Part shown: piece after piece, positions 1 to 28,133 of the stretch
Numbering within the stretch: position 1 is the first letter of the stretch
Layout: each line of letters begins with the position of its first letter
Assembly: GCA_049599475.1 (NCBI GenBank)
Contig: JBMYOQ010000004.1
Coordinates: 79,611 to 143,610, forward strand
Reading direction: 5' to 3'
Length of the DNA stretch: 64,000 nt
DNA from: Opitutales bacterium
GTDB taxonomy: Bacteria > Verrucomicrobiota > Verrucomicrobiia > Opitutales > JABSRG01
Notes under the pieces: model-generated
Database searches by the model: none
What the model saw: the letters and a program-made list of their open reading frames with translations, nothing else
What the model was told of the DNA's origin: nothing
Translations under genes and position numbers: made by a program

Positions 1-3000
1 GCCTCGGGCTTCGTAGATTATACAGTCGGCGAAAATACCTCACACGGGGCCTTGAATTGGGAGGTTTTCGAAATCGATTCTGATAAATCAGTGTTTTCGA
101 TGCCGATTGCTCAAGTAGCTCCTCAAGCTCTCGAAACCTTATCTCTCGAGCTTCAGGTCAACAATCAGAATATTCGCGAGAACAATCAGTGGAGTTTTCC
201 GAAGGGGGGAACCGTAGACATTTCAGGGGAGTTTTCCGATCTATTTACAGACTCGGCGAAGCAGGTGCTTTACCGATTGAACGCTTACAGGAGTCCATTA
301 GACGATGCGCAAAGCGGAAACTCCGGTATGCATTCGACTGCGCCTTCGACTCTGATGCGTGGCCTGCACACGCAGTCATCTCGTTGGGAGAGTGCTTATA
401 ATCAAGAGAATACGACCGATGAATTTGGGCGATTTCGGGACTTGATCCCCGTGGTTGAAGCCTTCGATTCCGAACATAAACGTTACCAATATTGGGTTGA
501 TTTTTTATACTACGAAGAGGGGTCCGGCGCTTGGGTTTCAGCAGGATGGATGGCCTTTGTGGTATCCGAACATGCTTACATCGGCCGTTTAGGGGTAAGC
601 TCCACTATTGTAGAACCGGGTGGTAGCGTATTGATGCGTTTCAGTGCGGAGTCTCCCTTTCGGTCTCCGGTTGCGGTCGATGGGCAAATTCGGGTTGAGC
701 GCAAGGAATGGGAGGAGACTTGGATCGATTCCAGAGGGCGCCAGTTGAGTGGCACGGAGTATCGCGAGACGCGTTCAAGGCGGGGTTTTTTTAGATCTTG
801 GGCTGAAGGGGATCGAGCTTACCGCCTTTTGGATTCGGGCTTTCGCCAGGAACCCATTTTTGCGCGCCGCCTAAACCTGAGGGCAGGTAATTCTTTTCAA
901 CGACAATTCCGCCTGGATGAGCCAGGCATATACGAATTCTCCTGGATGGATATTGATGCGGCAGGACGCCCTATTGTTGAGACGCAGACGGTCTACTGCA
1001 TCGACCTAGATTCAGGATCCACGGCAACTTGGAATTTACAGGATATTATTTGGGTGTCACCGGACGCCTTTCGCCCGAATGGGAGCGGGGACAGCGGTGT
1101 CATATTATTTCCCGACGAAGTTAAGCGAGCCTGGGTAGAGATACAGAGCCGGAATGGTCGAGAAATGAAAGTGTATGAAGTCGGGCGCGGTCTCATACAA
1201 ATCGCAGAAGCTGATTTTTCGAATCTATGGGCGGAAGCCACGGAGATTAAAATAGGTTTTTTAGAGGGGACTGAATTTCAAACTATGGCGATGCCGTTTG
1301 GCTCGATGAGCGCTGGGCAAGGCCTTGAAATAAATCTCTCACGAAGCCAGTTGGGCCCTCTGGATTCATTTGAGATATCCGCCTTCAATCTAAAAGAAAA
1401 GGAATCTCACAACCTTTGGTATATACTATCGCCAGAGTTGGATACTTCTCTTCAAGATAATCTGAGTTGGACACAAAATGCTCAAGGAAGGGAGCAGCAA
1501 GCTTCGTCTTGGACTACCTCATTTGATGCGATTCCCTATTATTTTCCGAAAAGCCCTCTTTCAGGCCAGGAACAAGAGGCCCGAGAAAGTAGTTCGTTGT
1601 TGGCTGCAGATCTCGAAGAGCATGCTCTATATCCTCTCGCAATAGGAGAGTGGCTCCATCAAATCGAATTACTGAATGACCGTGACGGCGTTGTTTCAAT
1701 GACCGCGCGAGCCCCCGATCAATCTGCTGAGTATCGGGTGCAGTTCTTGGAATTTGATCCGGGAGGAGATGCAGATGTCGGTGTAAGTAATATTTCCGTA
1801 CGAGCTCCTGTGGATGTAGACATCCGGGCACCAGAATGGGCGAGGAAAGGAGACCGCATTATTGCGGTAACGAAGATCTCGAACAACGACGAGAGTCCAC
1901 AAACTGAAGTCTTTGAAACACGCTTATCCTTCGGGTCAGAATCGGAATTTAGCAGCTTAAACAGAATGGATCTTGAGCCTGAAATCGATTATTCTCTTCG
2001 ATCCTATTTTGATATCCCGAATATCTCTGACTCTGACGATAATTTAGCTTCAATCAGTTTTAGGAGGGAGGGTAAACCTTGGAAGGTGGCCGTGGACCTA
2101 GAGCTGCATCCGAATGAATCGCTGGCAAAATACTTCTCCTCTGTAGATCAACTCCAGGCGGGTCTATGGAAAAACGAATCTGTTGATTTCGCTCGTTTGG
2201 ACGCCGTTTATTTCGCATTCGGGTATGAACATTTGATTGAAATGTTAGGAGAAGTTTCGGAGCAAAGTGCCCCGGAATTCGTATTAGCGCATCTACGCAA
2301 TTTGCTCTTTGAGCTGCTCTCTGGAGATGCAGACCTCGCGAAGATACGCCAAGAAATCGATCATTTGGAGAGATTTCTTACGTCTGACGGAGGTATTTCG
2401 TTCTACGAGAACTCTCAGAAGGATATCTTTTGGTCTGCCTTTATTTATTTATTATTGAGCGAAGTGCGGACCGAATTCGGAGTCGATTCGCCTCTGGATG
2501 ATGCGGTGAGTGGCTATCTGTCGAGTATCATTTCGGACGGCACTCAGAAGGCTTCGGCGCGCATATGGTCTCTCTATGCGCTATCGACTCGCTTCGTGGG
2601 GACAGACGCCACCGCAAGTAAGTCTGAACTATCGGCTTATCAACGCATGTGGAGGATTCGAGCCACATTGCCTCCGTATAGTTTACGGATGCTGAGTGTC
2701 GTGGCGGATCGCTTTGGTCTCGTCGAAGATCGCAAGCTATGGGAGGATTTGGCGACGAGGCGTGAGGAGACTCCGACGGAAATTAAAGTAAATGATCGCC
2801 TACGCATCGGCTTGGCTAGTGCAACGACGCCTTTCTTCTCCAACTCGGAACAGACTATGATTAATGAGCTATTCAAGTCAGGCTCTGAGACTGCCGGGGG
2901 TGCGTTTCAATTTTCGATCTCTGGTGATGCGTTAGATCGGACGTTTCTTTTGAAAATGCTTTTGGCTTTAAACTCTGTGCAGGGTGTGAGCTCGAAGGAG

Positions 3001-3705
3001 ACCGTTGGTTTTCCCGATTTGGATGCATTTAGAAATGCACTACAAGTGAGAGTGTCGGATCGTATCTTGAGTCCGGAAGAGTTCGAATTGGCGCGATCGG
3101 AGTCGGGTTATTTTATGCTGATACTGGATCCTTCAGTAGGCTTAGCAAATCCACAAGGCTCACTCACGTTGTCGATCCAGGGATCTGTGCAGCCGTTGTG
3201 GGTGCTCAAAGGAATAGATGATCTTCGGAAAGCAGGAGATGGTGTTTTCCTGAGCCGAGACCTGAAGCGTATTAGCCGCGTGCAGACCCTATTGCGCGGA
3301 GTTGTCGAAAAGTCCGAATCGGTTAAATCTGAGCAGGTTGTGCTCAATCCAGAGGATCGATTGCTCGTTGGTGTGAAAATCAACACAGACCGTGCTCTGA
3401 GATCGCTTGTATTAAGAGAGCCCTTACCTGCAGGGATGCGCTTGGTTTCATCGGATCTTAAGCTAGTAGGCCGCTCGGGCCGTGAGCTGCCAGTGGAAGA
3501 TGTAGAATGGTATGTCGATCCTTATGGAATCGAAGCCCGTATACGTAACTTGCCGGAAGGGGAATGGTCGATGGCTTATCGGCTCGGCCCTGATTTTGAG
3601 GGGGAATACCACTCCGGAAATTTTTCACTCTTTGGCAATGAACCAGAATTTCAGAAAGCGTACCTTCCGAAATACTCAGTCAAAATTTCTGAGGAACTGG
3701 AGTAG
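1..3705 (+). CDS. Alpha-2-macroglobulin-like protein, 5'-truncated by window edge
   Basis: Frame is open from base 1. MG-like beta domains, 'P..L..GD' motif (APEWARKGDRI), helical region 'DGGISFY...FWSAFIYLLL', C-terminal 'LREPLPAGM...YRL...GEY' typical of bacterial A2M. No CxEQ motif seen. Confidence 0.7.
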   Translation, partial: ASGFVDYTVGENTSHGALNWEVFEIDSDKSVFSMPIAQVAPQALETLSLELQVNNQNIRENNQWSFPKGGTVDISGEFSDLFTDSAKQVLYRLNAYRSPLDDAQSGNSGMHSTAPSTLMRGLHTQSSRWESAYNQENTTDEFGRFRDLIPVVEAFDSEHKRYQYWVDFLYYEEGSGAWVSAGWMAFVVSEHAYIGRLGVSSTIVEPGGSVLMRFSAESPFRSPVAVDGQIRVERKEWEETWIDSRGRQLSGTEYRETRSRRGFFRSWAEGDRAYRLLDSGFRQEPIFARRLNLRAGNSFQRQFRLDEPGIYEFSWMDIDAAGRPIVETQTVYCIDLDSGSTATWNLQDIIWVSPDAFRPNGSGDSGVILFPDEVKRAWVEIQSRNGREMKVYEVGRGLIQIAEADFSNLWAEATEIKIGFLEGTEFQTMAMPFGSMSAGQGLEINLSRSQLGPLDSFEISAFNLKEKESHNLWYILSPELDTSLQDNLSWTQNAQGREQQASSWTTSFDAIPYYFPKSPLSGQEQEARESSSLLAADLEEHALYPLAIGEWLHQIELLNDRDGVVSMTARAPDQSAEYRVQFLEFDPGGDADVGVSNISVRAPVDVDIRAPEWARKGDRIIAVTKISNNDESPQTEVFETRLSFGSESEFSSLNRMDLEPEIDYSLRSYFDIPNISDSDDNLASISFRREGKPWKVAVDLELHPNESLAKYFSSVDQLQAGLWKNESVDFARLDAVYFAFGYEHLIEMLGEVSEQSAPEFVLAHLRNLLFELLSGDADLAKIRQEIDHLERFLTSDGGISFYENSQKDIFWSAFIYLLLSEVRTEFGVDSPLDDAVSGYLSSIISDGTQKASARIWSLYALSTRFVGTDATASKSELSAYQRMWRIRATLPPYSLRMLSVVADRFGLVEDRKLWEDLATRREETPTEIKVNDRLRIGLASATTPFFSNSEQTMINELFKSGSETAGGAFQFSISGDALDRTFLLKMLLALNSVQGVSSKETVGFPDLDAFRNALQVRVSDRILSPEEFELARSESGYFMLILDPSVGLANPQGSLTLSIQGSVQPLWVLKGIDDLRKAGDGVFLSRDLKRISRVQTLLRGVVEKSESVKSEQVVLNPEDRLLVGVKINTDRALRSLVLREPLPAGMRLVSSDLKLVGRSGRELPVEDVEWYVDPYGIEARIRNLPEGEWSMAYRLGPDFEGEYHSGNFSLFGNEPEFQKAYLPKYSVKISEELE

Positions 3706-14613: not shown

Positions 14614-14814
14614 ATGGAACGGCCTTATATGAAAATGTTTGCCGCTCTAATATCGTCGTTTCTTGTATTTACGCCAACGTGTCTCACTGCAAGTGAGCCC
14701 TCGAATGGGACTTTGATCATGTTGGGATCTTTGAGTGGTTGGATGGTTCTCTCCACAGCTTTTGTCCTCAAAAAGAAGTCTGCTCTTCAGGTTGGCAAGG
14801 GAGAGAAACAGTAA
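14614..14814 (+). CDS. Small protein: signal peptide directly followed by PEP-CTERM-like segment
   Basis: MKMFAALISSFLVFTPTCLTA then SEPS, hydrophobic helix, KKK; ends 22 bp before the next gene. Confidence 0.55.
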   Translation: MERPYMKMFAALISSFLVFTPTCLTASEPSNGTLIMLGSLSGWMVLSTAFVLKKKSALQVGKGEKQ

Positions 14815-14836
14815 TTCATATCTGAAAGGATTCTAG

Positions 14837-17800
14837 ATGTACATTTTAGGTAGTGGACTCTCCTGGTCTAGAGGTTATGTCCATGGGACTCTTTTGATTC
14901 TTTGTTCTCTGGTTAATGCATCTGAAGCGGGTGTCGGATTACCGTATGAGAACGATTTCGAAAATTCCGATGGGGTTGGGATCGGACTAGTCTCCGAACT
15001 ATTGAATTGGTCGAAGACCGAAGGGCTTTCTGTTTCCGCAACTGACGACGCTGCATCCGGAGTTCAGGCGCTTGAACTATCATATGGTGGTGACTTTGGG
15101 CTCGAAATTCTGCCCTATCCCGAGCTAGATACTGTAGGCTGGGTCGATTTTTACCTTAAGCCCTCTGTAATAAATCAAGATGAGTTCCCCTCTTGGATTC
15201 CTCCCTATAAATCGGCGGTTACAGGCTTTGGTGAAATGGAAGGCCAGGGTGAGGTTTATGCTATCGACGGCGATGGGTTTGGAAGCGGGAAATGGCTCCC
15301 GTCTGGGGCATCCTTTGACATAGAGAGTAAGCAGGCAAAAGAATGGATGCGGTTGACCTACAGGCTCGATTTCGCGAGGAAGTCTTGGGATCTGTTTGTT
15401 GATGGTCAGTTTATTTACGCAGGTCTTGGGTTTCTAGACGATACAGTAAGCTCATTGGGGAGTTTTACGTTAAGATCTGGGATCGAAGATTCTACGAATT
15501 TTGATTTCTTCTATGCTGGATTCGAAAACCCAATATATCTGGATAGTTCAAACGATGGATTACCAGACGCCTGGCTTGAGGCCCAGGGATTGAGCGTTTC
15601 TGAAAGTCAACGTTATAGCGATTTAGATTTCGATGGTTTGGATGCTGCAGCGGAATATATAAATCAAACATTTGTCCATAATCCGGACTCTGATGGAGAT
15701 GGTGTCTCCGATGGAATGGAGGTTTCTTACAATAACGACCCATCCGTTGCTGATAGTTATATTTTAGGTGTCTTACCGTTTAGTGAAGATTTTGAGTCTT
15801 ATTTTGAGGGGAGTTTTTTCGATACGGAGAACTGGATTGTTACAGGGGGCGCCAATGTCTCTTCCAAATCACATTCTGGATCTCTCGCTCTCGATGTTGA
15901 ACCGATTTCCTCCGTCAAGAGTTGGATTGCGGGATCTTCTTATGGAATCGTTTGGGTTGATGTCTGGATCGAAAATCAAAGTGAATTACAGCCATCCGTA
16001 TCGTTAGATCAAAGTGTCGTTTACAGCTTTGACTTGGAGAATCGCCTGAGGGTTCGGGCTTCAAATAATCAATGGACCCAGGCTGATGTCTCGTCCCGGG
16101 TAGGATGGCGACGATACACCGTAAAGAATGACTACTCTTTGCAGTCGTCTGATATATACGTTGATGGCCTAAGGGTTCTGAGAGAAATCCCGTTTTCGGC
16201 TCCCTCTCCATTTTTGAATCAAGTTGAATTTCTAGGGCCGATAGCAATTGATGAATACTCTGTTCTGGGGACCAAGCCGGTAGGTTTGGATGACGACGCT
16301 GATGGCTTGGACAATGAATCCGAAATTTTACAGGGCACAGATCCGGAACTGTTCGATTCGGATAATGATGGAATGGGTGATCTGTCTGAAATTGTTCATG
16401 GCTTCGATCCATTAGCTGCTAACTCAGAGTTCTCATCATTTCAGGCTAGCTCCGAGAACCCGTTTTGGGTTTCTCAATTTTCTGTATTGGAGGGATTCCA
16501 AGCGGGAGACCTTGCTGGGCAAATGAATTGGTTGAGCTCCGGTGCCGCGTCGGTTTCCACTGAAGAAATGCTTGAAATAACAGACTCTATTGAGGGTCTA
16601 GTGCAGGTGTCCCACGGGTTTGGAATCGAAGAAATTAAAAGAGTCTGGGTCGCTTTTGATGCGGAAATGATTCCAGGATCTCTTCCTGAAACCCCAGATT
16701 CTGCTTTTGCATTCGCGATGGCGATGCGAAGTGTGGATTCTGTTTCGATTTGGAATGCTCAGGAGAATATGTGGAAGAATTACTATTCGGATCACCTTCG
16801 GGAAGGAATGAATACCTACGCATTTCATTTAGACTTCATTGAGAAAGCCTCGAGTGTGTATGCGAATGGAGTCCTTCTTGCCGATAACATTCCATTTTTA
16901 AACTCTCAGTTGGAGGCGTTCTCGAGACTTATGATTAGACAGGAACCCGCCGCCGACCGGGATCCTGGTGAGCCGTCTGAAATGGCATTGTTCGACAATT
17001 TTTATGTGTCGGCCGCCGAGCCAGCTGATATGGATTTTGATGGCGATGGTTTAGTGAACGAAATAGAGCGCCAGGAGGGAACGGACCTATATTCTGTAGA
17101 CTCGGACGGTGACGGTCTGGATGATCTATGGGAATATCAGAATGGCTTGGATGCCAGTGACCCTGAGGATGTTTATTCAGATTCAGATGGAGACTTTATT
17201 CCTGCTATTTATGAAATGAAGTATGGTTTGGATCCTAATTTTAAGGATTCGCATCCTATTTCAGGTATTGTAATGATGGACCAGTGGTGGGGGGCCAAAA
17301 GCAAGATCTCAAGTCTTACTGCAAAGAGCACCTTTCCTCTTAGTCCCGATAGGCGATTGGTGAATGATTCTCTGAACCTCGATGGAATTGCGTCTAACCT
17401 CATATTGGGCACATCTCTGCGTGTTAGAGGATATTTGAGCCCTCTTGAGACCGGGGATCATGAATTCTGGATCAAAGGCGAGAATCAAGCTCAACTATGG
17501 TTGAGTGACGATGATTCGCCTTTTGAGATGAGAAATGTGGCGCAGATCATGACGCAGAAGTATCGAGCTGAGGGATACGATGTTTACGCAGAGCAGAAGT
17601 CTCAGCCTATATACTTAGAAGCGGGGAAGCATTACTATTTTGAAGTCTTACAATCATCTACATCGAGTGAAGGGAACTTCTCTGTTTCTTGGAAATATGG
17701 TGCGGGTCCACGAGCTGAAATTCCATCATCAGCTCTTTCTTCAGCTGGACCATTTGCGGAGGAAGATAGTAACGACAATGGTTTGAAAGATTCGTGGGAA

Positions 17801-19495
17801 TCTAACTATCCCGCGATATCTCTTGATGGCTATTGGTCTGATTCAGATGCCGATGGCCTTTTAGACATACTGGAATATCAGATAGGAACCTCTCCTGTTT
17901 TATTTGATTCGGACGGTGATGGTTTCAGCGATTATGTAGAATATACTTATTTGATGAGTGATCCATCCACGGGAGATGTTATTTTGGATGCTGACAATCA
18001 TGTAGTAATCATTCCTTCGAACTATATATCCTCGTCTGCCGATTGGCTACCCTCCGGAGATGAAGTCTACTCGACTAATTCCACCGGATCGCTCGGGTAT
18101 GAGCTGAACTTGCTCTCAGATGGTGTATATTATCTAGAGATTGAAATTGCTGAGCAATCCAACGTCAAAACAACATCTTCGGAATTTGAAGTGAGAGCCA
18201 GTCTGAACGGAGTCTCCTATGGTATCGACAAATCTAGAGTCCCAGCTGGAGATGTTGGTAAGCTCGAATTCTATCTTCCTTACTTATCATTAGGGGCCTA
18301 TACTCTTGATCTTGACTGGATTAACGGGTTCTCTGGATCTCAGATCCGCATAAAGGCTATTCATTTGTATCGACTTACGGGAGAAGACGATGACGCATCA
18401 GGTGTCGCTGATTGGGTTGAGAGTCGTGCGCTAACCTTCTCTTCTGCTCCGATCGACGCGACTGTTTATACCTCACCGTTTCCAGTCGAAGGGGAGAGTT
18501 TCTCTCCTGAGCTAGTCGCAGTTTCCAGTTTTGTGGAGTCTGCCCCAGGCATTATCACCGCGGCGGAAACAAAGTTAGCCTTGTCGGGTGAGTATTTCGC
18601 TGAGGTATTGCTAAGCCCCGAGGAGCCCACGGTTGTAAATGTCATTGATGGAATAGCGAGTGTCTCCAGCCAGTTGCAGCTAACGTGGGCTGTATTTAAT
18701 GTATTTGAGAATGCATCAATCGATGTTCGACTTAATGACTCGCTCCTCCTCGGCTTGTTTGATCCGGAGAAATCCGAACAATCTAATTACGAGCTTACAC
18801 TATTCGCTCCTGATGGTTCCAGCGAGATGTATTCTATTTTTGGGAGCAACAATCTTCAGGTTTTATTTGATCAACCGGGTGATTGGGTAATTACCGGAAC
18901 AATTGACCAAGGAGAGGGGGTCGACCCACTCGTCTTTACGTCCAATATACGGGTTATGGAGGCAGACCTCAGCCCTACTCCTATCATTGTCGATAATGTT
19001 CAGAGAGACTGGCAGCCTAATGTATCAGCGCCAGATATCGAGTTGTCTTCAGATGCTGGAGTGATGCTTTATGAGCCGGATATCGGTTCTATGCCGCGCT
19101 CATTCAGGCTATCTAGTGGTGTGAATCGTGGCCGTATTTTGGCGAGACTTCCGAATGAGGGCCCGATCATATCGTCCACCGGGACGACAGTGATTCGAGA
19201 CTACACCCGTACGCAGACGCATGATACAATCGTAGAGACATTTGAAGATGGTACCGTTATGGTCAGCGCCTACATCATCCTTAATGAAGTTCCCGAAGAT
19301 CTCTCTTTGGAGATTACAATCTTTAAATCGGGGGTTACTTTCGATGATGGCACTATCACTCGGACCGTAACGGCTGAAGATTTTGATGAATCAGGAAGAT
19401 ACCGGTTCTACATGTTGCGTTCACCGAGTGTTAAAGGCGGAAATTGCCATCGGTATTTCTATTTTCAGGACGACACCCAAATTTCAACTTGGTAG
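14837..19495 (+). CDS. Large secreted protein: three lectin/LamG-like modules, thrombospondin type-3-like Ca-binding repeats, PA14 domain
   Basis: Signal-like N-terminus (…CSLVNASEA); many DxDxDG repeats; PA14 motif RVRGYLSP.ETGDHEFW…AQLWLS…I.LEAGKHYYFEV; highly acidic. Confidence 0.8.
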   Translation: MYILGSGLSWSRGYVHGTLLILCSLVNASEAGVGLPYENDFENSDGVGIGLVSELLNWSKTEGLSVSATDDAASGVQALELSYGGDFGLEILPYPELDTVGWVDFYLKPSVINQDEFPSWIPPYKSAVTGFGEMEGQGEVYAIDGDGFGSGKWLPSGASFDIESKQAKEWMRLTYRLDFARKSWDLFVDGQFIYAGLGFLDDTVSSLGSFTLRSGIEDSTNFDFFYAGFENPIYLDSSNDGLPDAWLEAQGLSVSESQRYSDLDFDGLDAAAEYINQTFVHNPDSDGDGVSDGMEVSYNNDPSVADSYILGVLPFSEDFESYFEGSFFDTENWIVTGGANVSSKSHSGSLALDVEPISSVKSWIAGSSYGIVWVDVWIENQSELQPSVSLDQSVVYSFDLENRLRVRASNNQWTQADVSSRVGWRRYTVKNDYSLQSSDIYVDGLRVLREIPFSAPSPFLNQVEFLGPIAIDEYSVLGTKPVGLDDDADGLDNESEILQGTDPELFDSDNDGMGDLSEIVHGFDPLAANSEFSSFQASSENPFWVSQFSVLEGFQAGDLAGQMNWLSSGAASVSTEEMLEITDSIEGLVQVSHGFGIEEIKRVWVAFDAEMIPGSLPETPDSAFAFAMAMRSVDSVSIWNAQENMWKNYYSDHLREGMNTYAFHLDFIEKASSVYANGVLLADNIPFLNSQLEAFSRLMIRQEPAADRDPGEPSEMALFDNFYVSAAEPADMDFDGDGLVNEIERQEGTDLYSVDSDGDGLDDLWEYQNGLDASDPEDVYSDSDGDFIPAIYEMKYGLDPNFKDSHPISGIVMMDQWWGAKSKISSLTAKSTFPLSPDRRLVNDSLNLDGIASNLILGTSLRVRGYLSPLETGDHEFWIKGENQAQLWLSDDDSPFEMRNVAQIMTQKYRAEGYDVYAEQKSQPIYLEAGKHYYFEVLQSSTSSEGNFSVSWKYGAGPRAEIPSSALSSAGPFAEEDSNDNGLKDSWESNYPAISLDGYWSDSDADGLLDILEYQIGTSPVLFDSDGDGFSDYVEYTYLMSDPSTGDVILDADNHVVIIPSNYISSSADWLPSGDEVYSTNSTGSLGYELNLLSDGVYYLEIEIAEQSNVKTTSSEFEVRASLNGVSYGIDKSRVPAGDVGKLEFYLPYLSLGAYTLDLDWINGFSGSQIRIKAIHLYRLTGEDDDASGVADWVESRALTFSSAPIDATVYTSPFPVEGESFSPELVAVSSFVESAPGIITAAETKLALSGEYFAEVLLSPEEPTVVNVIDGIASVSSQLQLTWAVFNVFENASIDVRLNDSLLLGLFDPEKSEQSNYELTLFAPDGSSEMYSIFGSNNLQVLFDQPGDWVITGTIDQGEGVDPLVFTSNIRVMEADLSPTPIIVDNVQRDWQPNVSAPDIELSSDAGVMLYEPDIGSMPRSFRLSSGVNRGRILARLPNEGPIISSTGTTVIRDYTRTQTHDTIVETFEDGTVMVSAYIILNEVPEDLSLEITIFKSGVTFDDGTITRTVTAEDFDESGRYRFYMLRSPSVKGGNCHRYFYFQDDTQISTW

Positions 19496-19501
19496 ATCGA
19501 A

Positions 19502-20389
19502 ATGTTTGGCCAATTAAATTTCTGCTCCTTATCCGGGAAGATTCTTTCTAAACTGCCAATTCTTTTGGGGCTGCTGTCATTCGTCCAAATTGTTCATCTG
19601 AGAGCTGAATTTTCCGTTGAAGATATTACAAACCTGTCGAGTGAGCCCTCGTTTGAAGAGCGCCATCATGCTCTTCATCGCCTATCAGGCGATCAGCTCT
19701 CCGATGGCTATCGTTGGTTATTCTCGTTTATGAAAGACGAGAATGTTCCTGAAGGAATGCGGCGAGTAGACTACATGTCCCTCGTAAATGATATTTTTAA
19801 TGTCCTGCTGGAGAATGATTTGAAGGCTCAAGATCTATTGGAGCTTTCAATAGATACGATACCTAAAATGGATGCGGACTTAGTCTGGCGGGACTATTGC
19901 GTTCAGAAATTTGGTTACTTGCTTGGCCGGAGTGACTTGTCCCCAGCTTCTGTTCATCGTGCGCTATCCCTTTTGGATAATGCTACTTCGGGAGCGTTCC
20001 CAGGATTGCAAGGTACTGCCCTTATTGTGGCTTGTAAGGTTATAGAAAGGCACCCTGAGATCGAATCATATTTCCTTGATAAAGGAAAAATCGGCATGCG
20101 GGCAATTAAGTCCGCTCAGTCGTTGGAGGCATCTCTTCTCGATAGAGTGACGGCCTTACAGGTTGCTGCGCGTTACCGTGCTGAGGGTACACTCGCTTAC
20201 TCGATTAAATTGATCGAAGAGTCTCTTTCGAAGGAATTGGATACGATGCTTTTGGTGTCCGCTATAGCTGCTCTAGGAGAGCTTGGAGATCTTTCTCACG
20301 AGTCATTGCTAAAAGAACACAGATTCTCTCCCGATGTCCGTTTGCGAAGTGCAAGCCGAAGAGCACTGAATGAAATTTCAACAAAATAG
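19502..20389 (+). CDS. Secreted HEAT-repeat-like protein
   Basis: Signal peptide (…LPILLGLLSFVQIVHLRA); helical; C-terminal 'SAIAALGELGD…DVRLRSASRRAL' HEAT/PBS-like motif. Confidence 0.7.
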   Translation: MFGQLNFCSLSGKILSKLPILLGLLSFVQIVHLRAEFSVEDITNLSSEPSFEERHHALHRLSGDQLSDGYRWLFSFMKDENVPEGMRRVDYMSLVNDIFNVLLENDLKAQDLLELSIDTIPKMDADLVWRDYCVQKFGYLLGRSDLSPASVHRALSLLDNATSGAFPGLQGTALIVACKVIERHPEIESYFLDKGKIGMRAIKSAQSLEASLLDRVTALQVAARYRAEGTLAYSIKLIEESLSKELDTMLLVSAIAALGELGDLSHESLLKEHRFSPDVRLRSASRRALNEISTK

Positions 20390-20405
20390 ATAAAGATTTA
20401 TTACA

Positions 20406-23400
20406 ATGTTTTCTCCATTTTCAGGTTATAGGCATACTCATATTTTGCGGTATATATTGCCGATTCTCTTCGCGCTTCTATGTGTCGGATTACCGGGAAC
20501 ACTTTTGGCAAATCGGGGCCCTTCTGATTCTTCTGGTACTGAAGATGATGGAAATGAAGAAGAGCTCTCTGGATGCGATTCATCGTCTGGAAGTGATAAC
20601 GGAAGTGTGAGTTTTGCTGTCCCGTTTCCTATTCTTCCTCTAGAAGAAGACTTAGGCGGACGGAAATTTCATATACTTGAGAGCGAGCCATCTCCGCTTC
20701 TGTTTACGCCCGCTTCCCTGAACCACACTTCTCGCGCATTCACATATGTGAGCGCTATTATAGATCCCTCTGACCTGCCAGAAGGGTTTTCTCACGAATT
20801 CGAAATTACAAATATTCAGAGTGAACCTATTAATTTTCTTGTTAGGCATGGCTCATCGATTGGAGTTATTGGAGGAGAGTTTACCGGATCGGGTGAAGTT
20901 GCGGAGTTGCTGGATTCTAGTTTTGCTCCGACGCAGGGGGTCCCAGCATATTATCGTGTCTATCTTGGTAGTGGTGGTTATATTGACTATCCGGCTAATC
21001 GGGGAGCGACACCTGATGCAGTCGTTACCCAAAGTGGTCGAAGTTTAAACCTGTCGACCGGAAAGGATGAGATTTTTGACGTCTCATATGACGGCGGTGC
21101 ATTTAGACAGATTCGTTCACCCTATGGTTTGGCAGATATTGTAGTGGTAGACGACTTCGGATATGAGATTAGATTTTATACTCCTGGTCAGGTTCTAGAG
21201 AAAGCTGGTGGAGAATACCCAGTAAACGGAGAACCATATCGAGTCATAGCGGTACGCAATCCGACGGGTCAAATTCAGAACAATTCGATTGTTCGAATTA
21301 CCGATACTCACGGTGATTACGAGTCGGTGTCTCAGTGGACATATGTATCAGGAGCCGAGGAGTGGGTCATGTCATCAGGCTATGATGCGGAGGCAGACGA
21401 ATTCTTACTGCACGAATACAAGACCGCAGAAGAGGTCTCGCCCGAAGAAAAATTGGTTTTAAGTGAGCTCTTAGATTCCGATTTAAATCTAGTTCAGAGG
21501 AAACAGGCTCTCCATACCACGGATAGTAATGGAAAAGTCTATATTACAGTCGAAACAGAGAGTCACAACGAAGAGAACTATGTAACGACGTATGATTATT
21601 ACTTCGAGGTTCAAGAGTCTGAGTCAGAGTCAGAGTCTGAGGCCCCAGATAGTGAAACAGACTCTGGCAGTGACAAGACGTTGACCTTTGGTAAACTGAA
21701 ATCTGTAGAGTACCCAAATGGCTCATGGGAACGTTATGTCTATGACGAAGCAAATAGGCGTTCCACTGTCGCGCGCCCCTGGTTAGATAGCGCGTTTAGT
21801 TCAACGGATGATGAAGCGAGGCTTACCGAATACTCATATGTCCCGGTACATCCGTTGGATATTTTGAACCCATTTGATAGTAGGCCGAGGACGACGATCG
21901 AATATACTTTAGGAATAGAGACGGGACGTGCATACAATGCCTTTTTCGTCGACTCCATAACTGGCGAGTACACGGAGATTATGGAAGTAGCGACAGTCGC
22001 TGGCGCACAATTTGGAGATTCAGCGAACTTACGTACAAAGCATACCTATTACCCTATCAGTGCGGATGCAGCATCAGCGGGACGTTTAAAGACTGTCGAA
22101 ACTCCAGATGGTGTTGTGCGGATCTATAGCTATGGGCAGGCTACATCTTCCGACAATTTTATTGAGACTGTAGATACAGTAGGTGTTGATGGTCCGGTAA
22201 ATGGTAAGTCCATGCGTATCCAAACAACTCGTAATACACGTGGTTTGGCTATCGCGGAGGCATCTTATGTGTATGCTTTGGATACATGGAATTTACTTTC
22301 GACAACATTCTTTGAATATACGGACGAGGTTTCGTCTTCGGGTGCGCAACTAAAGGTGTCTCGAAAAGACGGTAGGGTATTATTAGAGCAATCATGGTCA
22401 GGTCCAAACATTGCCTCTGTGATAGATGCGTTTGGAGTAGAGACACATTTTTTCTACGACCCTTTGGATCGCCTTGAGAGGGAAGTCAAAATCGGCGCCG
22501 AGGGGCGAGAGGATATTGTAACCACCTATAATAGAACACTTGGGGCAATCGATTGTGGCTGTGACGGAAAGCTCTCCATCAAGCGTACAGCTGGAGGGTT
22601 GACGCTGGAAGAGAAAAAGGACACAGACTCCGTCGGTAGGTTGTCTAGTACCCAAACTATTGATGGTTATCAGACTTCGTATTCATATTTTAATTACGAT
22701 TTGGAAACAACTGAGACTCTGCCGACTGGTGAGACGCGAACAACGTCGAATCATTTAGATGGTCAACTGAAGGCAACCTTGGGCAGTTCGGTTATTCACG
22801 AGTTTTATACTTACGAAATCAATTCAGATGGGCACCGTATAGTCACCGTTTCAATAGGCACTCAAAATTCTCCGCGCTACAAGAAGACGACTTACGATTT
22901 TGCGGGAAGATTGATAAGTGAGACTACGCCGACGACCACTGGTGGCACATACACTCGTACTTATACCTATGATGAGAGGGGGCTATTGGTGACTCAGTCA
23001 GAGCCTGGATTGGCGAGCACGGTATTTGAGTATGACTCTCTCGCAAACTCGGTACGCACAGGTTTGGATGTCGATGGTGATGGTGTGCTACAGTTACTGT
23101 CAGTAGATCGTATTACCGATAATGACACGTTTTTTGAGCAAGATGCTAGTCGTGATAACGCATGGTACGAGGTGTCCACCGTTACAACCTATCCTGACGA
23201 AAACAGCGACCGGTCAGTCATTGTTTCTCGTATGGCTGAAAAGAGTTCAGGTTTTACGCTTGCGACGGAGCACGGGGACCTGGTTTCGGAGACTATTGCT
23301 AGAGATATTCATGGAAACGAAACTGTCGTCACCACCTACGCTGAACGCTCGACGAAGACAGCCAAAGCTATCACCAATTCTCCCGGCTCTACGATCGATT

Positions 23401-26400
23401 CAGTAAGGACAGTAGTAAACACCTTACTCATCTCAGAGAATTCGCATACCTCGACTGAGGCTGTCATTTTCTATTACGACGCTCTGGATCGCCCTACGGG
23501 TATGCTTGACCCGAGAAATGCTCAGCCATCTCGGATTATATATGTCCCGAGGACCAGCCTTGTCGCATCGGAAATAGATGCGGCTCAAAACCTTACCACA
23601 TATACCTACTATCCTCAAAATTCCCTTGGCGCCGGTCTCGTACACTCGGTAACGGATGCCCTCGGAAAAAAAAGCTTTCGCGCCTATGATGAATTAGGGC
23701 GAGAAGAATACATCTGGGGAGAGACTGTATACCCGCAAAGATTTACTTATGATGAATATGGCCAGACAGAGACCCTCTCCACATGGCGCGAGGCTACCTA
23801 CGATCCTTTGTCGGATTCTTGGCCCGGTCTGACAGGGGGCGATACGACTACCTGGGATTATAATGCAGCCACTGGTCTGTTAATGCGCAAGGAATACGCA
23901 GACGGAAAAGGGACGGACTATACCTACAACGCCTCGAATCGCTTAGAGAAACGGGTCTGGGCTCGAGGCATCATCACCACCTATGTATATGATCAATCCA
24001 CGGGGGAGCTGCTATTAACCGATTATTCGGATACAACACCTGATGTTACTAATACCTATGATCGTATGGGGCGTTCTGATACAGTTACTGATACATCGGG
24101 TTTACGCACATATGCTTACCGCGATGCGGATTTACTATTAGAGAGCGAAACTCTTCCACACGTTTCAGGGCACGTCTTAGAGCGCCGCTACACGACCACT
24201 GATCAGGTCGGGCGCTTGGAAGGGACGGATCTCGACCTAAGTGGTGCGCATTTGCATACCTATTCATACGCGTACACATCCCATGGGCAGTTAGATACAG
24301 TGTCGGATGCGTCGGATATATTTACCTATCAATACCATCCCCAGTATGGCCATCGCACCGGGCGCTCAGGTGGAAAGGTAAATGTGACCTACACATACGA
24401 GGCCAATCGTATGCTTAAGACTCAAGTTGCCAATACCGACACGTCGGGTCAGGCCATCAGTACCTATTCCTATTCCTATGATGCGTTGGCTCGACGAGAT
24501 AGTCGTAGCCAGTCTGGGCTCTCGCAAAGCACAGATTCTGTCGATGTTTTTGAATACAATGATCGCTCCGAGCTTGAGGGGTGGGAGCGCTTCTCGGGCC
24601 TCGACCCCGAAAATCCGGGAGCAGCAATTCCCTATTTTAGCAGTGCATACACATATGATGAGTTGGGGAATCGAAAGACTAGTGCGGGCGGGTATCCCGC
24701 GCCAATTTCATCTACGTTCTCAGCCACCTATATGGTGAATGCACTGAACCAGTATGACGAGATCTCGAATAATGGGGTCACCCAAAGTCCTGAGTACGAT
24801 TTAGATGGCAATCTCCTCAATGATGGGAAGTGGTCTTACGTGTGGAGTGCTGAAAATCGCCTGATAGGCTTAGAGCCTACATCTGCTATAGCTGGCGACC
24901 AGCGATTCGAATATGCTTACGATGCGATGGGGCGCCGTTTCGCCAAAGAGACATATACGATGAACAGCCAAGGCGGTTGGAGCCTCACCGAAGACCGCCG
25001 CTTTGTCTACGATTCATGGAATCTCATCGCAGAATATGTAATCGATGCGTCTCTTGTTCCTCAGCCCGCAACCTTCCACACTTGGGGCCTCGACTTACGC
25101 AATTCCATGCAAGAAGCCGGAGGGATTGGAGGTCTACTAAAAACAAGAGTCATCGAGGATTCATCCCTCATCCCGTATCTCTCTTCACTTTACTACCCAG
25201 CGCACGATGCCAACGGAAATATCACCGAATATCTTGACGAGTCTGGAAATATTGCGCAATCCACGACCTACTCGCCCTTCGGCAGAACGCTCGATGAAGT
25301 GTCACCTAGCGGCTTTCATCCCAGCTTTGGCTTCTCATCTAAATATAGAGAGAATGAATCGGGCCTACTCTATTATGGCCTAAGATATTACGATCCAGAG
25401 ACGGGGCGATGGCTCAGCCGAGACCCCACGGGCGAACTGGGTGGCCTCAACTTGCTCTATGGCTTCGTGGGCAATGACCCATTAAATCTGACCGATGCGT
25501 TCGGACTTCTCGACTGTGAGACACAGGCTGTCATCAGCGAAGTCCTTGGCATCCTGACGGATCTCCTGATGGAGCTGGGGCCAGATATCCTGGATGCTAT
25601 CATTCCCGGAGCAGGCTTAATCATTCAGGCACTTTCCGGAGATATCGAGGGAGCCGTGATTGGCTTAGCTATTGAAGCTGTAGCTGGACTCACCCTCGCT
25701 GTCTTGACGGGCGGTGGTTCTATCCTGGCACGCGGGGGACTTCGCGTTCTATTGAACTCAAGGAGAATTTTTGGGGCATTGAGCAATGCGGCTTCTAGGG
25801 TTATGGATGTCGCCCGGCGAGTTTTGAATGGGCCAGCCACAAACAGAGTAGACAACATTGTTCCATGTTTTATTGCCGGAACTCTTGTTGCGACACCAAA
25901 TGGTGACGTTGAAATTCAAGACATCGAAGTCGGCGATATTGTTTATGCTTATAACTTCGAAACTGGTGAGGTCGTCGAACAAGAGATTCTACAAACGTAT
26001 AAGAATTTCACTTACTACTGGGTCGATATCGATGTTGGCGATGAGGTAATTACTGCTACCAGAAAGCATCGCTTCTGGGTTGAAAGTGAAGAAACCTGGA
26101 TTCCTGCTATCGACTTGAAAGAGGGGATGTCTGTCCTTAGCCAAAATGGGGAAGAGTTAGAGATCTTTAGCGTTAATCTTCGGCAAATTGACGACCCTCA
26201 GGACACTTTCAATTTGGAGGTGGAAGGTGATCATAATTACTTCGTTGGCACTTCAGGGACTTTGGTTCATAATGGTTATCCAGAATCACCTCAATATCCG
26301 CCACCAACTCAAGTCGGGGAGAACTTCCAATTTAACTTTGATGATTCTCCCGGGCGTCGAAACTCTCGTTCAGCAGGAGTTCGCCGAGCTCAACAAGCAG

Positions 26401-26576
26401 GAAACATCCAACCAGGAGAGATTGGGCACCACATCAATAGCGTTCAAAGTCATCCGCATTTGGCGGCTGAGCCGGATAATATTGAAGGTATTCAAACAGA
26501 ACCTGAGCATAGAGCTAGACATGGAGGTAATTATCGGAATCCTACGTCTGGACCACTTAGAACACCTGGTTGTTGA
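20406..26576 (+). CDS. Signal-peptide RHS/YD-repeat polymorphic toxin with Hint domain and Tox-GHH (HNH-fold) nuclease
   Basis: Sec signal (…ILPILFALLCVGLPGTLLA); many YD repeats; RHS core SGLLYYGLRYYDPETGRWLSRDP…DAFGL; Hint CFIAGTLV…LVHN; toxin GHHINSV..HP.LA..P.NI…EH…HGGN..NPT.G. Confidence 0.93.
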   Translation: MFSPFSGYRHTHILRYILPILFALLCVGLPGTLLANRGPSDSSGTEDDGNEEELSGCDSSSGSDNGSVSFAVPFPILPLEEDLGGRKFHILESEPSPLLFTPASLNHTSRAFTYVSAIIDPSDLPEGFSHEFEITNIQSEPINFLVRHGSSIGVIGGEFTGSGEVAELLDSSFAPTQGVPAYYRVYLGSGGYIDYPANRGATPDAVVTQSGRSLNLSTGKDEIFDVSYDGGAFRQIRSPYGLADIVVVDDFGYEIRFYTPGQVLEKAGGEYPVNGEPYRVIAVRNPTGQIQNNSIVRITDTHGDYESVSQWTYVSGAEEWVMSSGYDAEADEFLLHEYKTAEEVSPEEKLVLSELLDSDLNLVQRKQALHTTDSNGKVYITVETESHNEENYVTTYDYYFEVQESESESESEAPDSETDSGSDKTLTFGKLKSVEYPNGSWERYVYDEANRRSTVARPWLDSAFSSTDDEARLTEYSYVPVHPLDILNPFDSRPRTTIEYTLGIETGRAYNAFFVDSITGEYTEIMEVATVAGAQFGDSANLRTKHTYYPISADAASAGRLKTVETPDGVVRIYSYGQATSSDNFIETVDTVGVDGPVNGKSMRIQTTRNTRGLAIAEASYVYALDTWNLLSTTFFEYTDEVSSSGAQLKVSRKDGRVLLEQSWSGPNIASVIDAFGVETHFFYDPLDRLEREVKIGAEGREDIVTTYNRTLGAIDCGCDGKLSIKRTAGGLTLEEKKDTDSVGRLSSTQTIDGYQTSYSYFNYDLETTETLPTGETRTTSNHLDGQLKATLGSSVIHEFYTYEINSDGHRIVTVSIGTQNSPRYKKTTYDFAGRLISETTPTTTGGTYTRTYTYDERGLLVTQSEPGLASTVFEYDSLANSVRTGLDVDGDGVLQLLSVDRITDNDTFFEQDASRDNAWYEVSTVTTYPDENSDRSVIVSRMAEKSSGFTLATEHGDLVSETIARDIHGNETVVTTYAERSTKTAKAITNSPGSTIDSVRTVVNTLLISENSHTSTEAVIFYYDALDRPTGMLDPRNAQPSRIIYVPRTSLVASEIDAAQNLTTYTYYPQNSLGAGLVHSVTDALGKKSFRAYDELGREEYIWGETVYPQRFTYDEYGQTETLSTWREATYDPLSDSWPGLTGGDTTTWDYNAATGLLMRKEYADGKGTDYTYNASNRLEKRVWARGIITTYVYDQSTGELLLTDYSDTTPDVTNTYDRMGRSDTVTDTSGLRTYAYRDADLLLESETLPHVSGHVLERRYTTTDQVGRLEGTDLDLSGAHLHTYSYAYTSHGQLDTVSDASDIFTYQYHPQYGHRTGRSGGKVNVTYTYEANRMLKTQVANTDTSGQAISTYSYSYDALARRDSRSQSGLSQSTDSVDVFEYNDRSELEGWERFSGLDPENPGAAIPYFSSAYTYDELGNRKTSAGGYPAPISSTFSATYMVNALNQYDEISNNGVTQSPEYDLDGNLLNDGKWSYVWSAENRLIGLEPTSAIAGDQRFEYAYDAMGRRFAKETYTMNSQGGWSLTEDRRFVYDSWNLIAEYVIDASLVPQPATFHTWGLDLRNSMQEAGGIGGLLKTRVIEDSSLIPYLSSLYYPAHDANGNITEYLDESGNIAQSTTYSPFGRTLDEVSPSGFHPSFGFSSKYRENESGLLYYGLRYYDPETGRWLSRDPTGELGGLNLLYGFVGNDPLNLTDAFGLLDCETQAVISEVLGILTDLLMELGPDILDAIIPGAGLIIQALSGDIEGAVIGLAIEAVAGLTLAVLTGGGSILARGGLRVLLNSRRIFGALSNAASRVMDVARRVLNGPATNRVDNIVPCFIAGTLVATPNGDVEIQDIEVGDIVYAYNFETGEVVEQEILQTYKNFTYYWVDIDVGDEVITATRKHRFWVESEETWIPAIDLKEGMSVLSQNGEELEIFSVNLRQIDDPQDTFNLEVEGDHNYFVGTSGTLVHNGYPESPQYPPPTQVGENFQFNFDDSPGRRNSRSAGVRRAQQAGNIQPGEIGHHINSVQSHPHLAAEPDNIEGIQTEPEHRARHGGNYRNPTSGPLRTPGC

Positions 26577-26578
26577 CG

Positions 26579-27085
26579 ATGGACTCATTTGAAGACTTTG
26601 ATTTAGAAACATGGCTAGAAGCTCGATCGGATAAGAATGAGCTATCCGATGGTGAACTTCGCTTCTATCATAAAGATAACACGACTAGTGTTCTTATACC
26701 ACGGAACGATAATGATGGTTTGGATCCGAAGCTATTGTCTTCACCCCTTTCATGGTTTTATAAGAAGTATTTATGCGGCAGTATTGGGAATAGCCACATA
26801 ATCATTGGTTCTTCAAAGGTAGATGGTGTCGAAATTAGTCATCGATATAAAGTCCCTGGTCGCTTGGAAATGACTGACGTTCTAAAGAGGGTTGATGTGA
26901 CGAGCGAGGTAGGTGATTATTTTTTTGCAGTGGAGTCTGCTTGGATGTTTGCCTATGCTGTTAGGCCTGTTGATAATGGCTTCGAGCTGATTCGTTTTGA
27001 TCGAGACATGCAGACTTCAGAAGTTGTTTTTTCGATAAAGTCGATCTTTGATGACTGGTGGAATCTTGTTTCTGAGGACTTTTAG
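26579..27085 (+). CDS. Probable cognate immunity protein (SUKH/SMI1-KNR4-like)
   Basis: Starts 2 bp after the toxin stop; AT-rich; no signal peptide; 'L.WFY..Y..G.IG…YFFA…AY…IRFD…SI..IFDDW' resembles the SUKH layout. Confidence 0.7.
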   Translation: MDSFEDFDLETWLEARSDKNELSDGELRFYHKDNTTSVLIPRNDNDGLDPKLLSSPLSWFYKKYLCGSIGNSHIIIGSSKVDGVEISHRYKVPGRLEMTDVLKRVDVTSEVGDYFFAVESAWMFAYAVRPVDNGFELIRFDRDMQTSEVVFSIKSIFDDWWNLVSEDF

Positions 27086-27253
27086 ATAGCCGACTACGGG
27101 CACATGCAGTGCCAGATGCGTTGCATCTGATCACAGCATCTGCTGATCCGCTGCCACCAGGCAGCCCACGGCGGGTCTGCTATTGGTTCTGCGGATTAAC
27201 TAGAACCCGCACGGCGCATGAAACCTCGCTAAGGCTCGGGCGCCTACTGCACA

Positions 27254-27613
27254 GTAAGCGTCACACGAAGCACCGTCATTTAGCTATGTAACCAATGAAT
27301 GGATATCATAAATATGGTATCTATGACATCTACGACCTATACCGATACTGAAGCAGTCTTCCTAAAAACAGATCGTCTGGGGCGTGTCCACGTGCCGGCC
27401 GAGAAGCGCAAGTTGATTTTGAACCGTTTTGAATCGAGTGGTCTGAGTGGTCAGGCCTTTGCCGCTCAGATTGGCGTAAAATATCCGACTTTTGCCAATT
27501 GGGTTCAAAGGCGCCGAAGGGCTCAAGGCGGATATACCAACCGGGAGCTAGCGTCCGCAAAAGCTCCGCATAGAATTTCTTGTTGTATAGAAATACAGTG
27601 TATCTATTTTTAA
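27254..27613 (+). mobile_element. IS66-family remnant: left end plus truncated TnpA-like accessory ORF (27299-27613)
   Basis: GTAAGCGT… at 27254 resembles IS66 termini; HTH 'FESSGLSGQAFAAQIGVKYPTFANWV' typical of IS66 TnpA; tnpB, tnpC and right IR not seen. Confidence 0.7.
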
Positions 27614-27668
27614 CAGGTCACTTGCATTTAAATTTGCCTAATGAGTGCGGTTTCTTGTTTATACGATT

Positions 27669-28133
27669 ATGGAATTTGCAAGGGTTGTATTCATCGCATT
27701 TGTTTTTAGTTTGAGCCTAGTGTCTGAGGCTAAACAAATTAAAGGGGAGTCTCTTATATTTGATATCCCGGGCAACATAAACTACCAGAGTGTTGATGGG
27801 GTGGAGGGCTATATTTTTGAGTGGAAGGAAAAACAATCGGAAATCCAATTCTATATAGGCCGTAATGAATTAGGTCTTTCTATGGACAAATTGGAAAGTA
27901 TGGCAGATCTTTTAGTTAAGTTACAGGGAGCTGTGAAGGAGGAGGTTCGAATCGGAGTTTTCGAAGGGTTCGTGGTTAAGGTTAAGGAAACTGATATTTC
28001 CGGAGTAGAACAAAATCAGTGGAATTTCACGTTGACTACTGGGGATACCATTTGGGGAGGTTCACTTTCTGGAGCAGGCAAGAAGTCTCAACGCATCGTA
28101 AATTCCATTCTTGAGAATGCGAAAAAGCGCTAA
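27669..28133 (+). CDS. Hypothetical exported protein (possibly DcrB/PsbP-like fold)
   Basis: Signal peptide …FVFSLSLVSEA; beta-rich body ending 'IVNSILE'; AT-rich. Confidence 0.6.
   Translation: MEFARVVFIAFVFSLSLVSEAKQIKGESLIFDIPGNINYQSVDGVEGYIFEWKEKQSEIQFYIGRNELGLSMDKLESMADLLVKLQGAVKEEVRIGVFEGFVVKVKETDISGVEQNQWNFTLTTGDTIWGGSLSGAGKKSQRIVNSILENAKKR

Follow-up and report, generated by a model that had tools for sequence, protein, structure and literature searches.

Within a 64,000-nucleotide stretch of the genome of a marine Opitutales bacterium (GenBank assembly GCA_049599475.1, contig JBMYOQ010000004.1, positions 79,611 to 143,610; hereafter the window), we examined a five-gene operon at 14614-27085 that encodes a predicted secreted toxin of the RHS type together with two proteins, A and B. 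Comparison with related loci indicates that the conserved core of this arrangement is the C-terminal module of A, protein B and the next gene, which codes for a predicted secreted cargo. The cargoes probably carry a new N-terminal sorting tag, Asn or Asn-Pro. What is new in this locus is the pair of large unnamed families, the A module and B, and the short tag on the cargo; the polymorphic toxin system itself is known. On balance we favour an explanation in which a tag-directed loader would dock interchangeable toxins on an adhesin stalk, followed by export through a type II secretion system (T2SS), display, and delivery of a DNase to neighbouring cells.

The operon consists of five open reading frames (ORFs) on the + strand with intergenic gaps of 22, 6, 16 and 2 bp, the same layout as in an earlier annotation made from the sequence alone (the original prediction). 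We named the products mini (66 aa), A (1552 aa), B (295 aa), RHS (2056 aa) and D (168 aa). The signal-peptide-like N-termini that had been noted on the first four products correspond to hydrophobic cores with a best 11-residue hydropathy of 2.4, 2.1, 2.5 and 3.1, and D has no such core (-0.3); signal peptides were called throughout by this heuristic hydropathy rule. Taken as a whole, the original prediction of a new multi-component toxin-delivery system was partly supported, and it had missed both the cargo tag and an invariant Cys in protein A.

The co-occurrence of the three large genes was surveyed in 401 Verrucomicrobiota genomes, a sample in which kin are not independent and from which the alignment of the A C-module was itself partly drawn. 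The module and B were found together in 39 genomes, the module alone in 7, B alone in 13 and neither in 342 (B profile matches in 52 and module matches in 46). RHS cores were present in 36 of the 39 genomes with both, against a background of 248 of 401, and three of the 39 had none. A search of 301 genomes from the order gave 30 with a match to the N-terminal half of A, and their neighbourhoods repeated the series mini, A, B and large gene, with variants. Among 40 loci around B, the last 330 residues of A were found in 22, an RHS signature in 23, both in 15 and neither in 10. A more independent test was provided by scanning GTDB with a 10-residue B motif, which returned 74 loci, about eight of them repeating earlier ones. 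The motif was taken from a 14-row B alignment, so that the set is biased to canonical B and is uninformative on other phyla; nearly all loci were from Verrucomicrobiota, four were labelled as taxa outside the Planctomycetota-Verrucomicrobiota-Chlamydiota (PVC) group and two just as ‘bacterium’. The A module was present in 71 of the 74 loci, and in all 66 of those where 1.5 kb of upstream sequence was present. The tips of the toxins, in turn, are variable: the C-termini of 26 module-linked RHS proteins fell into 23 unrelated groups, and the shells of the closest of these proteins are 28-35% identical over 1300-1800 residues. The three large genes thus recur together with variable tips, as had been proposed. 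The cultured and harmless species Rubritalea tangerina KCTC 12907 carries the series A, B, RHS and small gene (locus L260). This genome (G000) has four paralogous loci. G000:C32:55-14374 has mini, A, B, an 83-aa ORF and RHS; mini is also present at C59:4265-17770 and C12:84075-88053, next to an A that lacks the C-module. An internal SpvB domain (PF03534) was matched only in RHS proteins of the paralogues on C59 and C90 (C90:1-9347).

The tag was recognised in the cargoes, which we defined as the product of the gene after the A-B pair. A set of 155 loci was reduced to 77 distinct triplets, in 70 of which the cargo had a rule-based signal peptide. An Asn no more than 12 residues after the hydrophobic core was found in 67 of these 70 cargoes, and an Asn-Pro within 22 residues in 40. 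The corresponding counts for Asn and Asn-Pro were 8 and 4 of 37 in A proteins, 17 and 6 of 71 in B proteins, 70 and 10 of 173 in other proteins of the loci and 274 and 41 of 602 in genome proteins, the last two sets including false signal peptides. When the first 60 residues of each cargo were shuffled 300 times, Asn was found in a mean of 40.1 cargoes (maximum 50) and Asn-Pro in a mean of 7.5 (maximum 16). None of nine other residues rose above its shuffle maximum, and among four other pairs only Pro-Pro did so (19 against 17); the enriched residue is Asn, not Asp or Gln, and the consensus of the tag reads N-P-[PC]-V. Grouped by similarity, the cargoes fall into 19 sets with no detectable relation to one another, and in 16 of these sets every member has the Asn. 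By comparison, RHS proteins from loci without the A module or B had Asn in 7 of 18 cases and Asn-Pro in 1 of 18, with nine more lacking a signal peptide. Within a single RHS clade, the tag was found in two module-linked proteins (L040, L130) and was missing from two in loci without the module (L044, L060). Where B directly precedes an RHS gene with no adjacent A, the Asn tag was present in 7 of 7. In the window, the tag is at the predicted mature N-terminus of the RHS protein (Asn36; 20511-20522, + strand) in the degenerate form N-R-G-P, and four of its five closest homologues have NP.

Protein A (14837-19495, +) is predicted to be a secreted, adhesin-like stalk. Its N-domain (aa 33-245; 14933-15571, +), for which a hidden Markov model (HMM) of its own was built, is lineage-restricted and is the partner of the mini protein; it had no NCBIfam match of note and presumably adopts a lectin-like fold. 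A PA14 domain (aa 860-963; 17414-17725, +) was identified over the cut-off (PF07691, E 3.1e-6), flanked by TSP3/DxDxDG repeats of the calcium-binding type (PF18884), with nine DxDxDG-type motifs between aa 262 and 1024. This lectin/PA14 part had been put forward as the conserved feature of the system. N-terminal parts of A differ between loci, however, and the PA14/lectin-like part is swapped between lineages; the conserved core of A is its last 346 residues. This C-module (aa 1207-1552; 18455-19492, +) was modelled as four tandem immunoglobulin (Ig)-like domains with a mean predicted local distance difference test score (pLDDT) of 94.5. In structure searches it had generic Ig matches only, the best of which reached Z 9.6 over 85 residues. 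The window member matched no family in Pfam or NCBIfam, and PDB sequence searches yielded no specific relative for A (no match at E 0.1) or for its module. The last Ig domain contains Cys1537 (19445-19447, +), the sole Cys of mature A, at a position that is Cys in 36/36 and in 86/86 aligned rows, the larger alignment leaving out one fragmentary locus. The residue that follows is His in 92%, with Asn or Gln instead in 3/36 rows.

Protein B (19502-20389, +) is predicted to be a secreted or membrane-tethered HEAT-like solenoid, and is our candidate for the loader. It belongs to an unnamed family of its own with the conserved motifs ND, RDYxxQ and GT, the profile of which matched 2382 clusters at E 1e-10. 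The window protein showed a weak HEAT_2 match and was HEAT-like by Atlas features and by structure; a cluster look-up of 10 B proteins returned a single name, ‘HEAT repeat protein’. Many homologues have an N-terminal anchor and a long low-complexity linker. Several B homologues stand beside DUF1573-like Ig proteins (L114, L121, L124, L127, L129), mostly without A or RHS nearby, and in one Atlas cluster B is fused to DUF1573.

The toxin itself, as far as its domains tell, is of a known kind: a signal-peptide RHS shell followed by Hint, a Tox-GHH-like tip and a SUKH-like putative immunity gene. The RHS protein (20406-26576, +) has a signal peptide, a disordered tail, an RHS shell with RHS repeats, an RHS core (aa 1622-1701), a hydrophobic linker, Hint and a nuclease tip. 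Domain-library scans revealed no match to PAAR, VgrG, two-partner secretion (TPS) or SpvB families, and a model of aa 36-1198 (pLDDT 84.5) runs from a disordered tail (aa 36-65) into a beta shell entered at about aa 68, so that the absence of such an N-terminus, as originally described, holds. Tse5 and other Rhs shells were the best structure matches of this model, ranked above teneurins. The core autocleavage motif PxxxxDxxGL is intact (aa 1690-1701; 25473-25508, +; TIGR03696, E 1e-20), with DPTG at 1673. Between core and Hint there is a hydrophobic helical segment (25509-25865, +; 19-residue hydropathy of 2.13 at aa 1749) with a weak prePAAR_I match below the cut-off, which we consider a candidate membrane-translocation region. 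The PT-HINT domain (25866-26273, +; matched over aa 1827-1956) was assigned by PF07591 (E 2.9e-18) and by PDB 2lwy (E 4e-18), and has Cys1821, TxxH and a terminal HN followed by Gly, the cleavage type. The tip (26274-26573, +), a mobile cassette of 100 aa that resembles HNH nucleases, scored below the cut-off against PF15636 (Tox-GHH; E 0.035, 14.5 bits against a gathering score of 25). It has 19 homologues of 60-72% identity sited behind other Hint domains. We nevertheless call the tip GHH-like because it aligns with two PF15636 members (E 2e-8 to 3e-8) with the GHH-N-H-H residues conserved. Protein D (26579-27085, +), predicted to be cytoplasmic, had no Pfam match; its Atlas feature matches (0.93-0.94) and structural similarity (TM score 0.5-0.6) to SMI1_KNR4/SUKH/Syd clusters were below the naming bar, and we regard it as a SUKH/SMI1-KNR4-like putative immunity protein. 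The nuclease tip of the original prediction is hence nuclease-like by sequence, with a putative immunity gene next to it.

We then considered which machinery could export these proteins. This genome is 96.6% complete and gave no match to TssC or VgrG, and TssC was found in only 4 of 49 module genomes, in agreement with the expectation that the operon does not depend on a type VI secretion system (T6SS). One TpsB gene is present, and it has its own adjacent 1808-aa partner. A search of this genome for the type IX secretion system with PF11751 (PorP-type) gave no match, but none was obtained in any control either. A full T2SS cluster is present at G000:C1:88352-99060 and is a ready candidate for the outer-membrane step. 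A GspG-like gene was found in 50 of 50 module genomes. At one locus (L122:2-15789), the genes immediately after a complete T2SS-like cluster are B and a tagged RHS gene, a single case that links the module to the T2SS.

We propose that A, B and the cargo would pass the inner membrane by Sec. In the periplasm, B, which in many homologues may be held by its N-terminal anchor and linker, would read the Asn(-Pro) tag that becomes accessible once the signal peptide is cleaved off, and would place the cargo on A, at its head of four Ig domains. A and cargo would exit together through the T2SS and be displayed; attachment and reach would come from the variable N-terminal part of A, with its PA14, calcium repeats and lectin-like domains. 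The RHS shell would cut itself at the core motif, and when cells touch, the Tox-GHH-like DNase would be released into a neighbouring bacterium by the hydrophobic segment and Hint; kin would be protected by the SUKH-like protein. At one locus (L051) the A N-domain is fused directly to an RHS shell and the C-module is missing, which fits a module that replaces a covalent link.

Several observations weigh against this proposal or narrow it. B was found without A or RHS nearby in 10 of 40 loci, although several of these were ended by contig edges. Only 31 of the 74 motif-picked loci showed an RHS signature (18 of the 30 with 6.5 kb of downstream sequence), and many cargoes are non-RHS or split. 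Conversely, 194 of the 248 genomes with RHS cores have no module. The clade of the window RHS protein occurred in 29 of 58 genomes with A or B, and in 28 of 80 RHS-positive genomes without A or B (80 of the 194 were searched), so the module is not required by it. The genomes are related, and all of these counts overstate independence. The window toxin itself begins A/N-R-G-P, not N-P, and the window B lacks some family residues. At the paralogous locus on C32 it is the 83-aa ORF that carries NPP, the RHS protein there having only a distant Asn. Lastly, the GspG count comes from module genomes only and so does not single out the T2SS. In some module-free loci, other upstream partners were found near window-clade RHS proteins. 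The module is thus one route among several. In genus g125 (L188-L190, L199, L200) the RHS clade is present in many copies that lack both a partner gene and a recognisable signal peptide, which points to yet another export route. A second type of RHS partner, read by eye, ends in what resembles a lone first Ig strand, such as PLITL...P or VFTPL (G000:C63:3421-12663, C112:162-9970; L054, L056, L058, L194, L202), and suggests strand donation as another coupling of stalk and toxin.

Of the alternatives to docking by a loader, that of a general surface-display platform, with toxins as one class of cargo and adhesion or biofilm structure as its main job, is possible but on the doubtful side, and is compatible with the explanation that we favour. 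It would account for the 300-1300-aa Cys-rich and TSP3-rich cargoes in which no RHS was detected, and for the three A+B genomes without an RHS core. The enrichment of RHS cores in the other 36 counts against it, as do the complete predicted toxin-immunity pair of the window locus and the many non-RHS cargoes that are truncated at a contig edge or have an RHS gene after them. A covalent version, which we put forward only tentatively and think somewhat improbable, is that the invariant Cys of A reacts with the cargo Asn through a thioester or by transpeptidation, with B as an assembly factor; the cargo would be ligated to the stalk and may pass on to a nucleophile on the target. Cys-Gln thioester adhesins offer a comparison. 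The idea rests on the Cys being free, having no internal disulfide partner as the sole Cys of mature A, and on the Asn of the cargo, which together make a covalent link possible; the frequent His after the Cys and the enrichment of Asn over Asp or Gln are consistent with it. A plain disulfide between A and cargo was set aside, since several cargoes (L040, L043) have no Cys in their first 200 residues. On the other hand, the His is replaced in some rows, fold searches with the module as a whole placed generic Ig matches first, with no thioester or sortase domain ahead of them, and a free Cys could equally bind metal or lipid. The broader form of this idea, a phylum-wide ligation system in which any Asn-Pro-tagged toxin or surface protein would be plugged on a stalk in the periplasm by a HEAT loader and joined covalently through the Ig-head Cys, is a similarly speculative extension.

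It is unlikely, in our estimation, that no tether exists at all, with B a private foldase for A (lipase-specific foldases provide a comparison), A an independent adhesin and the Asn tag merely a processing or T2SS signal, the genes clustering through joint action in contact killing. B does follow A (71/74) far more tightly than it is accompanied by RHS (31/74), its homologues with anchor and low-complexity linker would suit such a role, and some copies are beside or fused with DUF1573 Ig domains. Yet A and B, for which the same export route is expected, lack the tag, as do module-free RHS proteins, and B directly precedes tagged RHS genes with no adjacent A. Since only the cargoes are tagged, a foldase role for B accounts for the A-B pairing and not for the tag. 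Finally, the RHS protein could belong, as an effector, to a T6SS, Tc or two-partner apparatus whose genes are at another site, with its neighbours incidental. The internal SpvB domain of two paralogous RHS proteins, the single TpsB gene and the incompleteness of the assembly leave room for this; the signal peptide of the RHS protein, its conserved neighbours, the separate partner of TpsB and the scarcity of T6SS markers here and in other module genomes, in searches that covered TssC, VgrG, TpsB and SpvB but not TcA, make it very improbable, and T6SS delivery in particular is already largely refuted. We therefore retain docking of tagged cargoes on the Ig head of A by B as the preferred explanation.

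The first gene of the operon encodes the mini protein (14614-14814, +), an accessory product with a signal peptide, an EPxxGTLI motif, a hydrophobic helix and a basic tail. The 66-aa ORF is a real gene: iterated HMM search found 30 homologues, 8 of them in this genome and the other 22 in related loci. Of 32 proteins with the A N-domain at their start, 24 have mini as a neighbour, against 1 of 63 proteins without this domain; mini tracks the domain, and its candidacy as a core part was rejected. Two homologues are fused at the C-terminus of 222-251-aa proteins, ending LPEP or VAEP. Secreted proteins of 220-260 aa encoded upstream of A (L038:18730-19398, L047:18598-19353, L057, L260:4933-5619) also have the mini motif, or a tail resembling it, at their end, so that mini seems to derive from a PEP-CTERM-type protein that has lost its cargo. 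Three exosortases were identified in this genome, and 15 PEP-CTERM matches exceeded the cut-off; mini matched neither PF07589 nor TIGR02595, and hhalign to the PEP-CTERM tails of this genome gave only 10.5%. The description of mini as a PEP-CTERM-like peptide is accordingly borne out in layout, and in neither profile nor a core role.

In and around the operon, GC content is 44-47% at 14-23 kb and 26-29 kb compared with about 50% in the surroundings, and the block is bounded by an IS66 tnpA remnant (27299-27613; NF047593, over the cut-off). The gene after this remnant (27645-28133) encodes a secreted product of 156-162 aa that belongs to no family; it may be an orphan immunity gene. In run X1, a single 16-kb contig spans 13500-27250 with zero differing letters, although X1 may be the source sample and hence not independent; run X2 contains the same strain, thinly represented, and is uninformative on tip exchange. 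For this region no RNA data set was listed. A short repeat at 27123-27252 also matches other X1 contigs. Unrelated to the operon, an alpha-2-macroglobulin-like protein (weak A2M and bMG10 matches) is encoded at 52-3705.

The A-B pair is present in about one in ten of the sampled Verrucomicrobiota genomes (39/401). How Sec-exported teneurin-like toxins are delivered has been described as an open question (PMC13018210), and for the display and delivery of Sec-exported Gram-negative RHS toxins the tag makes this question accessible to point mutation in a cultured species. If our explanation is true, a tag of 2-4 residues common to unrelated cargoes would be a new sorting signal, and the system an undescribed way of arming the cell surface. 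Were the covalent version true, it would provide a new peptide ligase, useful in protein engineering, and would show Gram-negative bacteria using a logic like that of sortases, based on a Cys-Asn link and a tag at the N-terminus.

In the literature covered, which extended neither to most subscription papers nor to the supplements of PMC3482391 (these possibly list such neighbourhoods), we found no description of an A-B-tagged-cargo arrangement. A Sec-exported RHS-Hint toxin, one part of the candidate new system in the original prediction, is not new in itself: in the available text of Zhang et al. 2012 (PMC3482391), the general secretory route is the most prevalent for polymorphic toxins and HINT is found with it, which makes such toxins the commonest known class, and verrucomicrobial tips are listed. 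The Sec/T2SS RHS-Hint toxins described there share with the window protein the signal peptide, RHS, HINT before the tip, toxin-immunity order, variable tips and lectin-type adhesion domains. Their adhesion domains are in the toxin chain, however, and a separate Ig stalk, a HEAT partner and an Asn tag are absent from that part of the description. Akkermansia Rhs/YD proteins, some in outer-membrane fractions, are reported in PMC8920140 and PMC4960237, the available portions of which note no partners or route. In the Neisseria MafA-MafB pair, as portrayed in the same portion of PMC3482391, a conserved upstream secreted protein is proposed to anchor the toxin N-terminus on the surface; MafA is a lipoprotein, and the conserved N-domain of MafB is globular, whereas the window system has three components, no homology to this pair was found, and a 2-4 residue tag is present on unrelated cargoes. 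Mini shares a motif, a transmembrane helix and a basic C-terminal cluster with PEP-CTERM/exosortase substrates (cf. PMC1569441), but has no Pro-Glu-Pro motif and no cargo between signal peptide and motif. T6SS Rhs effectors (RhsA, Tse5) and Tc BC complexes have the same shell fold and core motif, and differ in that the window RHS protein has a signal peptide and no PAAR, VgrG, Eag or SpvB, with TssC mostly absent. Bacterial teneurin-like proteins, according to the available part of PMC13018210, are also exported by Sec and have a YD shell, variable adhesion modules and a toxic tip, and their structures (PDB 9pt5, 9ifo) gave weak matches to the RHS protein. They are single chains with an FN-plug and an NHL propeller, while the window RHS protein is modelled, without a domain-by-domain alignment, as a shell of about 1640 residues with neither element, accompanied by a separate putative stalk and loader.

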